Below are positions 13,299-15,678 of a DNA stretch of 64,000 bases, piece by piece. The stretch is taken from positions 160,001-224,000 of the forward strand of contig OZ219789.1 of assembly GCA_964291285.2 (NCBI GenBank), read 5' to 3'. Source of the DNA: Alphaproteobacteria bacterium. Lineage in GTDB: Bacteria > Pseudomonadota > Alphaproteobacteria > Bin95. Numbering within the stretch: position 1 is the first letter of the stretch; every line of letters begins with the position of its first letter. The notes under the pieces were generated by a model. The model saw only the letters and a list, made by a program, of their open reading frames with translations. It searched no databases and was not told the origin of the DNA. A program made the translations under genes and the position numbers.

Positions 13299-13982
13299 AT
13301 GTTGATCGAACAGCGCAGCTACGACTTCCACCCCGGCCGCATGGACGCCTGGCTGGAGATGTACGGCCGGCTCGGCATGCCCGCCTCGGACCGCCATATG
13401 GGTCCGAGCCTCGGCTGCTTCACCACCGTCATCGGCCCGGTCAACCGCTTCGTCTTCCTGCGCGGCTATGACGACATCGACGCGCGCGACGCCGGCCAGG
13501 CCGCCCGGGCGAAGGACCCGCAGTGGCAGGAGTTCCGGAAGGAGGCGGGCGCGCTCGGGGCGCTGAAATACCAGGAAAGCAAGTTCGTCCGCCCGACGGC
13601 TTTCCCGCCCGTGCAGAGCGAGGCCGACCTGCCGTGGAAGCGCACCCTTCCCGGCACAGGCATGATCGTGGACCACCGCACCTACGACATGCATCCCGGC
13701 AAGGGCGGCGCCTGGCTCGACGCCTACCGCGATGTCGGCCTCGCCGTGCAGCGCCGCCATCTCGGCCAGCTGCTCCTGTTCGCCACCACCGAGGTCGGCC
13801 CGATCAACCAGGCCGTCTTCATGTGGGCCTATGAGAGCATCGGCGACCGCGAGCGCCGGCGGGCCGGCATGGAGCAGGACCCGGGCTGGGCCGCGTTCCG
13901 CCTGCGCCACCAGCCGTTCCTCGCGCTCAAGCAGCAGACGAACCAGCTTCTGGAGCCGACCGCCTTCTCGCCCGTCCGCTGA
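13299..13982 (+). CDS. NIPSNAP family protein (two tandem domains)
   Basis: Two repeats (LIEQRSYDFHPGR / MIVDHRTYDMHPGK ... W.Y...RE..RA); AAGGAG SD. Confidence 0.88.
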   Translation: MLIEQRSYDFHPGRMDAWLEMYGRLGMPASDRHMGPSLGCFTTVIGPVNRFVFLRGYDDIDARDAGQAARAKDPQWQEFRKEAGALGALKYQESKFVRPTAFPPVQSEADLPWKRTLPGTGMIVDHRTYDMHPGKGGAWLDAYRDVGLAVQRRHLGQLLLFATTEVGPINQAVFMWAYESIGDRERRRAGMEQDPGWAAFRLRHQPFLALKQQTNQLLEPTAFSPVR

Positions 13983-14010
13983 ATGGCGGGCTCCGGGAGG
14001 ACACCCCCGG

Positions 14011-14093
14011 CATGTCATGAGATGTCATGTTTTGTCATGCGGGCCCGGCAGGACACTGCGCAACATGTCATGAAGTGTCATGTTTTCCATGCG
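14011..14093. repeat. Two blocks of 10-bp-phased TGTCATG direct repeats
   Basis: CATGTCATGAGATGTCATGTTTTGTCATGCG (14011-14041) and CATGTCATGAAGTGTCATGTTTTCCATGCG (14064-14093), starts 53 bp apart. Confidence 0.9.
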
Positions 14094-14099
14094 CAGGGT

Positions 14100-14464
14100 T
14101 CATATGCTGTAGCCGTTTCTGGCATGAAGCCGTCCACTCTTCGGTCTCCTTCTGCGTCTTGCGTTGACCGTCGCCCCGGCCCCGGAGCCGGGGTGACGAT
14201 AGGGGCTTGCGGACGAGGTCATTGCGGCCTGCACGGAGCCGGTCCTACCACCCGCCGGGGCCGGCGCCTCCACCTCCGGCTGCGGGACCCAGGCGTCGAG
14301 GTCGTTCGCCGGCTCCCCGGCAGGTGCGGGCACAGACTCGGGCAGATGGGCGGCGGCCCGGCGCTCATCTCCTCCACATAGGCCGTGGCAAGGGCCGCGG
14401 CGGCCGGCGCGAGCCTTTCGGCCGGCATCGCGGCCAGCCCGGGGCGGGGGTCGGTTGCCGTCAT
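14100..14464 (-). pseudogene. Probable frameshifted or internally deleted hypothetical gene
   Basis: Strong SD (GAAGGAGGA) and ATG 14464 MTATDPRPGLAAMPAERLAPAAAALATAYVEEM; GC3-rich codons continue in a different frame (HLPESVPAPAGEPANDLDAWVPQPEVEAP). Confidence 0.45.
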
Positions 14465-14695
14465 CGTTCCTCCTTCTCCGACGGGGAGCGGGTCCCTGTT
14501 TCCGCGCGTATCCTGCGCGGGCGCCCGCGCCTGCCCGGGCGCGTGTCGGCGCCGGCGCGGTTCGCGCGCCTGATTGCGCGCGCGAGGCAGAGGGCGCACG
14601 TCTCCCGTCGGCTTCTCACGGGTTTTCAGAAACTGGCGCCGCTCGGCCGCGCAGCACCCGGGGACGCGGCTCCGGAGTCCGCTTCCCTGGGGACC

Positions 14696-14737
14696 ATCAT
14701 ACCACAATCCGTCAGATGTCAAGATCAAAAAGCGAAC
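14696..14737 (-). promoter_or_regulatory. Sigma70-like promoter with adjacent LexA-like box
   Basis: Minus strand GTTC-gcttttt-GATC immediately followed by TTGACA-N15-TATGAT, with an extended -10 TGg. Confidence 0.55.
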
Positions 14738-14877
14738 AAAAATCAAAATCATTAGATTTTTTTCATGATTCCGCTAGGGCAGGAAACATGAAGCAGGGAT
14801 TCGGGTTGCGGTTGAGGACGGCCGGCGGCGGGGGCAAGATGGAAGCGGTATCCGGTAGCGGTCGGCGGACGAGGGCG

Positions 14878-15678
14878 ATGAGGCTGAAGGACAAGGTGGC
14901 GCTGGTGGTCGGCGCCGGACAGCAGGACGGCGACACGGTCGGCAACGGCCGCGCGGCGGCGGTCCTGTTCGCGCGCGAAGGGGCGAAGGTGGTGGCGGTG
15001 GACAACAACCTGTCGTCTGCCGAGGAGACCGCGGCCATGATCCGCGCCGAGGGCGGCGACTGCGCCCCCGTGAGGGGCGACGTGACCGACAACGGGGACT
15101 GCGCGGCGTTCGTCAAGGCCTGCACCGACCGGCACGGGCGCATCGATATCCTGCACTACAATGTCGGCATTACCGGAGACGGGCTGGACAACGACCCGAT
15201 GACGCTGCCGGAAGAGGTCTGGGACCGGGTGATGGACGTCAACCTGAAGGGCCTCTACCGCACCTCCCGGCTGGTGGTGCCGGTCATGCGCGAGCAGCGG
15301 TCGGGCGCGATTGTCGCGGTCTCCTCGATCATTGCCGTCTGCGCGGCCGACCGCGTGATCTACAAGGCGTCCAAGGCCGGCATGAACGCCTTCTGCCACA
15401 TGCTCGCCAGCACCAATTGGGACTATGGCATCCGCTGCAATGTCATCATGCCGGGCCTGATGGACACGCCCATCTCCATCGGCTACCGCGTCCGCAGGAG
15501 CGGCGTCTCCGCCGAAGAGGTCCGCGCGTCCCGCGACGCCCAGATCCCGCTGAACCGGAAGATGGGGACGGGCTGGGACACGGCCCATGCCGCATTGTTC
15601 CTCGCCTCGGACGAGGCCCGGTTCATCACCGGCGTCAACCTGCCGGTCGATGGCGGCATGACCGCCCGCATCGGCTGA
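14878..15678 (+). CDS. SDR family oxidoreductase
   Basis: KVALVVGAG...GNGRA, YKASKAG (YxxxK), PGLMDTP, LPVDGG motifs. Confidence 0.93.
   Translation: MRLKDKVALVVGAGQQDGDTVGNGRAAAVLFAREGAKVVAVDNNLSSAEETAAMIRAEGGDCAPVRGDVTDNGDCAAFVKACTDRHGRIDILHYNVGITGDGLDNDPMTLPEEVWDRVMDVNLKGLYRTSRLVVPVMREQRSGAIVAVSSIIAVCAADRVIYKASKAGMNAFCHMLASTNWDYGIRCNVIMPGLMDTPISIGYRVRRSGVSAEEVRASRDAQIPLNRKMGTGWDTAHAALFLASDEARFITGVNLPVDGGMTARIG

Follow-up and report, generated by a model that had tools for sequence, protein, structure and literature searches.

Between a NIPSNAP-like gene and a short-chain dehydrogenase (SDR) gene in the stretch of alphaproteobacterial DNA analysed here (the window, 64,000 nucleotides (nt) in full) lies an element of about 0.8 kb, at positions 13983–14770 of the minus strand, which we found to be a degenerate, protein-dead member of a dispersed, lineage-specific, high-copy family of phage-derived cassettes. 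The family is a dispersed, promoter-bearing repeat or cassette of a new, lineage-restricted make, built around a DNA-binding protein derived from the small terminase subunit (TerS) of phages. With moderate confidence, we read its members as phage-derived expression cassettes whose TerS-like protein would bind the phased repeat tails of all units in trans, the window copy being one that no longer encodes a working protein. An earlier reading made from the letters of the window (the sequence-only reading) had listed a LexA-like promoter, a structured leader, a broken open reading frame (ORF) and phased repeats, and we located each of these features on the minus strand where it had placed them. 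Its central proposal, a decayed copy of an undescribed, dispersed and self-contained unit, was borne out by about 104 loci in the source genome.

A modular family of dispersed units

The element is far from single-copy. Compared by BLASTN with the rest of its genome (G000, 6.13 Mb in five contigs, C1–C5), the stretch gave 71 scored matches and, when flanks were added to the query, 147 high-scoring segment pairs that merged into 104 loci on all five contigs. Copy number differed by module along the query, with approximately 20–35 copies of the promoter part, up to about 92 of the leader core, 15–28 of the ORF start, only 2–8 of the variable middle, and 25–47 of the tail. We counted 107 occurrences of the core motif CAATCAGGCG in the genome and 175 of a two-repeat tail pattern, and both were absent from the reversed control. 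A tail lay within 6 kb downstream of the core at 85 of the 107 core sites, mostly at a distance of 159–1220 nt. A stricter core pattern was passed by 89 of these sites; among the remainder are members of another, unrelated repeat family with at least six copies (Table 1), whose only sequence in common with the leader core is CAATCAGGCG (...caacaatcaggcgggagccgctctcccgatggcg...).

The units follow a common plan, in which an AT-rich tract, containing TTGTTC as well as a GAAATAATTC-like box, is followed by a −35 hexamer, 15 nt, TGn and a −10 hexamer (TTGACA-N15-TGnTATGAT), then by hairpin 1, a GC-rich leader with a core hairpin, a ribosome-binding site, a variable ORF and a tail of CATGACA repeats. 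Unit size ranged from 0.35 to 1.4 kb, a full unit with one gene measuring about 1.3 kb. Promoter part, leader core and tail blocks are found in variable combinations, making the family a modular mosaic. The same architecture was present in 13 of the 16 other genomes of the genus (14 of 17 counting G000), and the family was found at the DNA level in none of the 24 genomes of other genera that were searched.

Copies resemble one another from approximately 195–210 nt upstream of the core to at most about 45 nt past the last repeat array, which places the window unit at approximately 13983–14785 (Table 1). Coverage by other copies drops to 1 outside about 13990–14785, and homology of the flanking genes in relatives stops at 13982 and restarts at about 14808. 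The base composition of the window copy follows its modules: GC content is 0.34 at 14700–14749 and 0.42 at 14750–14799, compared with 0.66–0.86 elsewhere in the stretch outside the tail, and 0.50–0.60 on the tail side (14000–14149). The ORF of the window copy, whose ATG stands 4 nt from AAGGAGG, is 81 amino acids (aa) long and matches an intact 218-aa gene of a sister unit (L009:2398-3054) for about its first 39 codons, and homology to that intact class resumes in the tail. No terminator-like site was called at the 3′ end of the window copy. Such a copy could probably serve only as a source of promoter activity or RNA and as a binding site.

Table 1. Positions of the features described, given as window positions, as contig:position in the source genome (G000), or as locus numbers.
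Feature	Position	Strand	Remark
Whole unit, degenerate copy of the acidic-protein ('MTATDP') subtype	13983..14785	-	ends fuzzy
AT-rich upstream tract, including GTTC-N7-GATC (14737-14723)	14723..14770	-	GC 0.34-0.42
Promoter-like element: TTGACA 14722-17, 15-nt spacer, TG 14704-03, TATGAT 14701-14696	14696..14722	-	predicted from sequence
GC-rich leader, putative 5′ untranslated region (UTR), ~226 nt	14465..14690	-	most conserved part of the family
Leader hairpin 1 (GGGAAGCGG...CCGCGTCCC)	14661..14687	-	paired in 84% of cells, 43 sequences
Core hairpin CGCGCGC-AATCAGG-GCGCGCG, invariant loop	14563..14584	-	paired in 89% of cells
Ribosome-binding site AAGGAGG (14475-69) and ORF remnant (ATG 14464-62, stop 14219-21)	14219..14475	-	
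Remnant of nested small palindromic repeat (GTCACCCCGG...CCGGGGCGAC)	14170..14197	-	~100-bp version at the same place in sister copies
Conserved tail: block 1 14082-14066 (2 x CATGACA), block 2 14039-14013 (3 x CATGACA)	14013..14126	-	10-bp spacing; CATGACR starts 14082, 14072 (block 1) and 14039, 14029, 14019 (block 2)
GC hairpin after tail (CCGGGGGTGTCCTCCCGG), approximate 3′ end of unit	13993..14010	-	semi-conserved ccgggggGTCC past last repeat in sisters
NIPSNAP-like gene, flank outside unit	13299..13982	+	stop codon ~30 nt from last tail repeat
SDR gene, flank outside unit	14878..15678	+	divergent from unit promoter
Second CAATCAGGCG repeat family	C1:60348, C1:801062, C1:828107, C3:407001, C5:310759, C5:393357		
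IS3-family insertion sequence after tails	C2:1255460 region, C2:1111096, C1:691027, C2:1315452		
Insertion sequence with 599-aa transposase	C1:257877, C2:676546, C3:685895, C3:201455, C4:199406		
~1.1-kb leader inserts	C1:640069-641457, C3:1276370-1277764		
Palindromic repeat at related loci of metagenome-assembled genomes (MAGs)	L071, L084, L116		

TerS-like cargo and the phased tail

The variable ORFs fall into three classes. Class 1 is an intact ORF of 329–336 aa (MPVIDPAVALSTRQEAFCRHY...) in ten units, with many more internally deleted remnants; class 2 is an intact acidic ORF of 192–218 aa (MTATDPRP...) in four units, of which the window copy carries a remnant; and class 3 consists of conserved ORFs of 31–41 aa (MPKTRSR...) in short units. 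Intact versions of the kind of frame that is broken in the window are therefore present in other units of the same genome.

The 329-aa protein of class 1 matched the Pfam family Terminase_2 (PF03592; 45.2 bits against a cut-off of 26.1) at residues 11–70 and PHROG 51, the terminase small subunit (E = 9e-13), and its sequence matches in the PDB were the TerS DNA-binding domains 4zc3, 2cmp and 3zqp. In its AlphaFold model, the predicted local distance difference test (pLDDT) score averaged 64.6, exceeded 90 at residues 11–50 and remained at about 80–93 through residue 100. The N-terminal domain of the model superimposed on SF6 phage TerS with target-normalised TM scores of 0.85 for 4zc3 (root-mean-square deviation 1.6 Å) and 0.82 for 2cmp. 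By these sequence and model comparisons, the N-terminus of the 329–336-aa protein is a predicted small-terminase helix-turn-helix DNA-binding domain. Beyond it, the protein continues with long helices (52–106 in the model) and a C-terminal half that is acidic and disordered, and its end is rich in lysine. Two source names in a large protein set also label the 329-aa protein 'terminase small subunit'. Of the records in the phage collection, 36 match it, none over more than 35% of its length. All 12 Terminase_2 matches in G000 are copies of this dispersed unit.

The acidic protein of class 2 gave no usable match in Pfam, NCBIfam, PHROGs or PADLOC. Among the candidates scored, 155 relatives were found at E ≤ 0.001; two bear the NCBI name 'hypothetical protein' and the others no name. 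Its AlphaFold model (pLDDT 76) consists of two long helices and two beta-hairpin-helix repeats and had no PDB match at E ≤ 0.001; protein-atlas scores reached at most 0.83, which is a lead only. Profile-profile comparison of the acidic and TerS-like families found P.HDKT, a product of the first tail repeat, as their only common part. The PADLOC defence models gave no family for either cargo protein at E up to 1.

The tail itself is strictly phased. Neighbouring CATGACR motifs in the genome stood exactly 10 bp apart in 273 pairs, compared with none at 9 bp and five at 11 bp, and the reversed-sequence control held no CATGACR pair within 60 bp, so that the 10-bp phasing is far beyond chance. We counted 164 phased arrays in the genome, 61 with two repeats, 92 with three and 11 with four. 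With their 10-bp spacing the repeats offer ATG and TGA in each of the three reading frames, which is why ORFs, whether intact or frameshifted, all terminate within the tail; cargo ORFs end there as ...HDKT-stop, ...HDIS-stop or ...HDIP-stop, the tail-encoded ...HDKT being an ending common to every cargo family. The triple 10-bp repeat was retained in relatives whose protein identity is 45–58% and whose leader is unalignable. The sequence-only reading had supposed that some protein binds the downstream repeats, and by analogy with phage packaging the candidate for that part may be the TerS-like helix-turn-helix protein of the sister units.

In phages, TerS proteins recognise pac or cos sites through repeated boxes, such as the pac boxes of SPP1/SF6 G1P and the R sites of cosB bound by lambda gpNu1. 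Following this analogy, each unit would work as an expression module, in which an AT-rich tract and an extended −10 promoter precede a leader with two conserved hairpins, and a ribosome-binding site leads into the cargo ORF and the phased tail. About ten autonomous-looking units would supply the 329–336-aa TerS-like protein, which would oligomerise and bind the tail arrays of all units in trans, marking approximately 160 sites in the genome. The arrays would also stop translation in every frame, so that any cargo gene or deletion derivative would end cleanly in the tail. The units resemble phage TerS-pac/cos systems in their N-terminal helix-turn-helix of the Terminase_2/SF6 G1P type and in having a short direct-repeat array at or inside the gene end. 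They differ in number, with 10 intact genes and about 160 arrays per genome where a phage has one, in having no large terminase subunit (TerL), portal or capsid gene beside them, and in the 200-aa acidic C-terminal extension, own promoter and long leader of the unit.

Several points weigh against this reading. Binding of the TerS-like protein to the tails is argued from analogy with phages. The Terminase_2 match is limited to profile positions 2–61 of 141 and leaves the TerS oligomerisation core unconfirmed; a few phage TerS proteins align as far as residue ~122 of the 329-aa protein at 28–35% identity, full-length 3zqq matched its model weakly (TM 0.38), and a homo-oligomer prediction with four copies of residues 1–120 scored 0.16 against a mark of 0.42, which is evidence neither way. 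Purifying selection on the cargo genes speaks for the reading, with a median ratio of nonsynonymous to synonymous substitution rates (dN/dS) of 0.33 in the ten intact class-1 copies (45 pairs), 0.22 in the N-terminal 110 codons and 0.22–0.48 between positional orthologues, but these values come from copies picked for being intact. No head or packaging ORF was found within or beside a full unit, and no large-terminase gene adjoins any unit. The TerL families PF03237, PF03354 and PF04466 had no match in G000, and the TerL that was detected there (PHROG 9, E = 1e-48; C2 ~89.8–91.4 kb), which has no terS beside it and lies about 13 kb from the nearest unit, belongs to a type present in four of 17 genomes of the genus, compared with 14 of 17 for the repeat family; a resident packaging partner is therefore not general. 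This TerL is part of a prophage-like cluster at C2 ~85.3–92.4 kb (L137 11333–18363) that also holds a portal gene, a prohead protease/capsid gene and a C-terminal primase fragment.

A bolder version of the packaging idea, which we regard as doubtful, is that the set of roughly ten SOS-linked terS genes and about 160 dispersed pac-like arrays would capture the TerL of an infecting or resident headful phage, with the result that host DNA and units would be transduced or phage packaging sabotaged in a decoy-type defence, the units multiplying through recombinogenic DNA ends and not through a transposase.

Leader and promoter

Two further points against our preferred reading, of expression cassettes with TerS-bound tails, come from the leader. 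The first is that it folds no more strongly than its composition gives and that its covariation is weak. The sequence-only reading had described a structured leader; what held was a self-complementary, GC-rich leader of about 226 nt, and what did not was folding beyond composition, as the minimum free energy (MFE) of −123.4 kcal/mol corresponded to z = −1.39, with 17 of 200 shuffled sequences folding as well. The second concerns transcription. In sponge metatranscriptome contigs the summed depth was approximately 1553 on the leader compared with 8–11 on the flanking genes, a ratio of the same order as the copy number of a repeat present about 100 times, in contigs where DNA carry-over is possible. 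Such depth shows neither a transcription start nor expression, and the activity of the promoter is a prediction from its sequence.

Conservation within the family is nonetheless highest in the leader core, for which BLAST matches number up to about 92. All members carry an invariant GCAATCAGGC hairpin loop in a GC-rich leader of about 230 nt, and the columns GCAATCAGG showed no variation in any of the 43 leaders aligned, which came from several genomes. Across these 43 leaders RNAalifold gave a weak consensus (covariation term −0.7), and the MFE structure of the window copy, at 65.6% paired across the family, was not kept as a whole. Two hairpins were well kept, hairpin 1 at 84% and the core hairpin at 89%, and hairpin 1 showed compensatory changes in two pairs. 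Over the whole structure 12 pairs had compensatory changes compared with 9.9 in shuffled alignments, 77 of 500 of which reached 12. The sequence-only reading had recognised no intron, CRISPR or riboswitch here, in keeping with an Rfam cmscan of 13700–15000 at E up to 10, in which the three matches were at chance level, the best reaching 17.8 bits where the gathering score is 70.

These data bear on the idea that it is the leader RNA that functions, either as a multicopy small RNA or as a cis-regulatory RNA family, with ORFs and tails secondary. The core is the most repeated and invariant part (89–107 copies), and the highest summed contig depth in the RNA library falls on the leader, but the fold statistics, the covariation term, the number of compensatory pairs compared with shuffles and the Rfam scan all argue the other way, as do distant relatives that keep gene and tail with a leader of only about 40–60 nt that has no core. 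We therefore hold a leader-RNA function to be improbable. A type I toxin-antitoxin-like locus for a small peptide, comparable to the LDR and hok/sok repeats of E. coli with their promoter, long folded 5′ UTR and short ORF, is suggested by the conserved 31–41-aa peptides (MPKTRSR...YPEPMPE...) that follow the same leader in short units. The peptides are basic and proline-rich, not hydrophobic, the promoter scan of the window copy yielded none in antisense orientation, and the conserved gene of the family is the TerS-like one, so that this is the explanation to which we give the least credence.

Upstream of the leader, the hexamers of the window copy are separated by 15 nt and accompanied by TG at −15/−14, giving an extended −10 element. 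A consensus promoter scan called no promoter in the window copy because the scanner permits only 16–18-nt spacers. A promoter pair matching at least 9 of 12 positions was found in 26 of 89 units, with a 15-nt spacer in 22 and the TG in 24, compared with one of 89 in a control region 2 kb upstream. Promoter sequence varies by subfamily and the layout is constant; only TTGTTC and the GAAATAATTC-like box recur in the upstream tract across subfamilies.

In the window copy, GTTC-N7-GATC abuts the −35 hexamer TTGACA, and the sequence-only reading had taken it for a LexA site that would make the unit inducible by DNA damage. One half-site does fit, but the second is mismatched and varies among sister copies (GATC, GAGC, TGGC and GGGC), and the boxes of this genome look different: the lexA promoter (C3:1242688) carries GAACCAATATAGAAC, and about 14 further SOS boxes read GTTC-TATATAA-GTTC or its complement. 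We rejected GTTC-N7-GATC as a LexA box on these grounds, and the LexA-like part of the promoter claim fell with it. Several of the genomic SOS boxes are surrounded by almost the same sequence (ggaacttatatagaacaaaaagggataat.tcaagc), a sign that SOS-controlled cassettes may be repeated in this genome.

TerS-type units have a perfect GAAC-N7-GAAC just upstream of their ORF in 41 of 80 related loci, as counted by a scan of locus positions 1201–1510 that included some loci whose match does not start at 1501. In the relatives with a short leader, the spacer of this box is AT-rich and the box directly follows the −10 hexamer. The window copy has no box of the GAAC-N7-GAAC type upstream of its ribosome-binding site. 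Judging from these motifs, SOS control of TerS-type units is a reasonable idea that does not extend to the window copy, and repression of the window copy itself by LexA at GTTC-N7-GATC beside the −35, with induction by DNA damage, appears very improbable to us, even with the boxed sister units in its favour.

Mobility, inheritance and relation to known systems

Apart from copy number, mobility was assessed from occupied and empty sites. In G000 and two relatives (G002 and G015), a pair of convergent genes encloses a sister unit, and these genes nearly abut in two genomes that are without the family (G013 and G003), which makes a clean empty site. Synteny blocks of the relatives end at unit positions, and G000 in turn has empty sites for insertions seen in relatives. 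The empty-site allele that the sequence-only reading had suggested looking for between NIPSNAP and SDR was thus obtained for a sister copy; because the two genes are non-adjacent in most relatives, a strict empty site was unobtainable for the window copy, for which absence could be demonstrated on one side only. Of 15 relatives with a match, 12 lose homology to NIPSNAP at the stop codon of that gene. The core and tail motifs were absent downstream of NIPSNAP in four of five fetched relatives, and from the fetched SDR locus (~1.5 kb on each side of the gene) in six of seven, the seventh having a core motif about 1.27 kb upstream. Unit sequence beside NIPSNAP was also present in G006, G007 and G014.

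Some apparent sites proved to be something else. The site of L007 in G012 holds an unrelated gene of 480 bp, and that of L073 in a relative is a 2.2-kb patchwork of several repeats with unreadable borders. At G012:C5:2599511-2600027 (L040), where G000 has a unit by a tRNA gene, we observed an unrelated segment of about 480 bp that contains a small ORF and its own promoter-like TTGACA site. A direct repeat of 30 bp in the flanks at C3:1213734, considered as a target duplication, is a duplicated segment of an ATP-binding cassette (ABC) ATPase gene. There, a short unit (C3:1213419-1213794) stands between the end of an intact ABC-transporter ATPase gene and a 5′-truncated paralogue sharing about 95 bp with it, which looks like a rearrangement at the unit.

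We considered a classical non-autonomous transposon, a miniature inverted-repeat transposable element (MITE) or mobile insertion cassette, in which a transposase from elsewhere would bind the leader or 5′ end and the tail, the cargo proteins being passengers. Such an origin would account for the approximately 100 intergenic copies on all replicons, for the presence/absence site of the sister copy and for internal deletion derivatives that retain both ends, as is usual for non-autonomous elements. One insertion in a related MAG (L096, 1.66 kb) even has 28-bp inverted ends and a 22-bp duplicated hairpin, with the corresponding site empty in G000, but these ends recur in no other locus nor in G000 and were rejected as termini of the family. 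Inverted repeats of at least 12 bp flanked four of 79 G000 units compared with 18 of 232 mismatched-flank controls, and direct repeats of that length four of 79 compared with 10 of 232, although fuzzy unit ends could hide short duplications. Terminal inverted repeats were thus not above control level in the 79 units, and the two ends of a unit are unlike. No transposase domain was detected in the unit ORFs with Pfam, NCBIfam or PHROGs, a cognate enzyme encoded elsewhere not having been searched for. Matches of at least 97% identity over at least 300 bp were found only in flanks, and no full-length pair (≥900 bp) exceeded 96.8%. Passenger status would also leave unexplained why the tail is retained with the TerS-like gene at 45–58% identity. 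On balance, we see transposition of this kind as possible but unlikely.

Sequence divergence tells more about how the copies persist. Full-length units in G000 were 89–97% identical to one another (46 pairs of at least 900 bp; median 91.5%, maximum 96.8%), and positional orthologues in other genomes (n = 5, excluding a sixth pair, L116, whose ORF is truncated at 133 aa) were 76–83% identical, in loci with flanks that are 82–94% identical. As paralogues are closer than positional orthologues, this pattern points to homogenisation of the units by recombination or gene conversion between copies, as far as sequence identities can tell. The copies would then be old and largely inherited vertically at fixed sites, persisting by descent and gene conversion.

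The TerS-like gene had 117 confirmed relatives in a species-representative collection, and the 80 loci listed all came from MAG records of uncultured Alphaproteobacteria or Rhodospirillaceae, with many copies per genome. The TerS-like protein profile found no match at E ≤ 1e-20 in 300 other genomes sampled across the class. Relatives at 45–58% protein identity keep the promoter as well as the triple 10-bp repeat, and their leader of about 40–60 nt is without the GC-rich core. Going by record titles and run labels only, the hosts are apparently uncultured, sponge-associated symbionts.

The categories of insertion sequence (IS), MITE, REP/BOX repeat, integron, toxin-antitoxin locus and satellite do not describe the family, the defining features of several having been looked for and found absent. 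MITEs and mobile insertion cassettes are non-autonomous elements with inverted ends, some with passenger genes and promoters. The units are like them in copy number, intergenic sites, deletion derivatives that keep both ends and location at synteny breakpoints; they differ in their unlike ends and in flanking inverted and direct repeats that stay at control level. BOX, ERIC, RIME and REP/BIME, the classical repeats, are non-coding and 30–300 bp long; the units share with them a module mosaic and GC-rich hairpins, but have a ribosome-binding site, a promoter-like element and protein genes under purifying selection. Phage satellites of the SaPI/PICI type carry their own TerS to redirect packaging. 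The units are comparable in having a terS-like gene apart from terL and possibly an SOS-type control box, and unlike them in being about ten times smaller and repeated about 100-fold and, by ORF content, in lacking integrase, replication and regulatory genes. A full-text literature search, judged by titles and the starts of abstracts, returned no such element, and there is a real chance that the family is something categorically new, a genome-wide set of terS genes and recognition sites.

If the TerS-like protein binds the tails, the family would be a clear case of a packaging-recognition module turned into a dispersed genomic repeat. Consequences for genome rearrangement are suggested by the synteny breaks that coincide with units, and consequences for gene expression by the predicted strong, outward-facing promoter of each unit; transduction or phage interference in uncultured symbionts is a possible further one. 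The hundreds of units per clade also form a natural data set for the concerted evolution of dispersed repeats.

Other mobile elements were observed in and beside the units (Table 1). An IS of the IS3 family (end TGGGCCCCTGGTCTCGGACAG...) stands directly after the tail (...GGAG/TGGG, the slash marking the junction) of at least five units, which suggests that it targets the unit end. In five units the leader is interrupted by a second IS, which has a 599-aa transposase and sits each time at an identical position (directly after ...cgcgaattag). An insert of about 1.1 kb, the copies of which are 98% identical, likewise splits the leader at a shared point, about 170 nt into the unit. The palindromic repeat bounded by GTCACCCCGG and CCGGGGCGAC, about 100 bp long when complete, is nested in units and is common in the intergenic DNA of related genomes.

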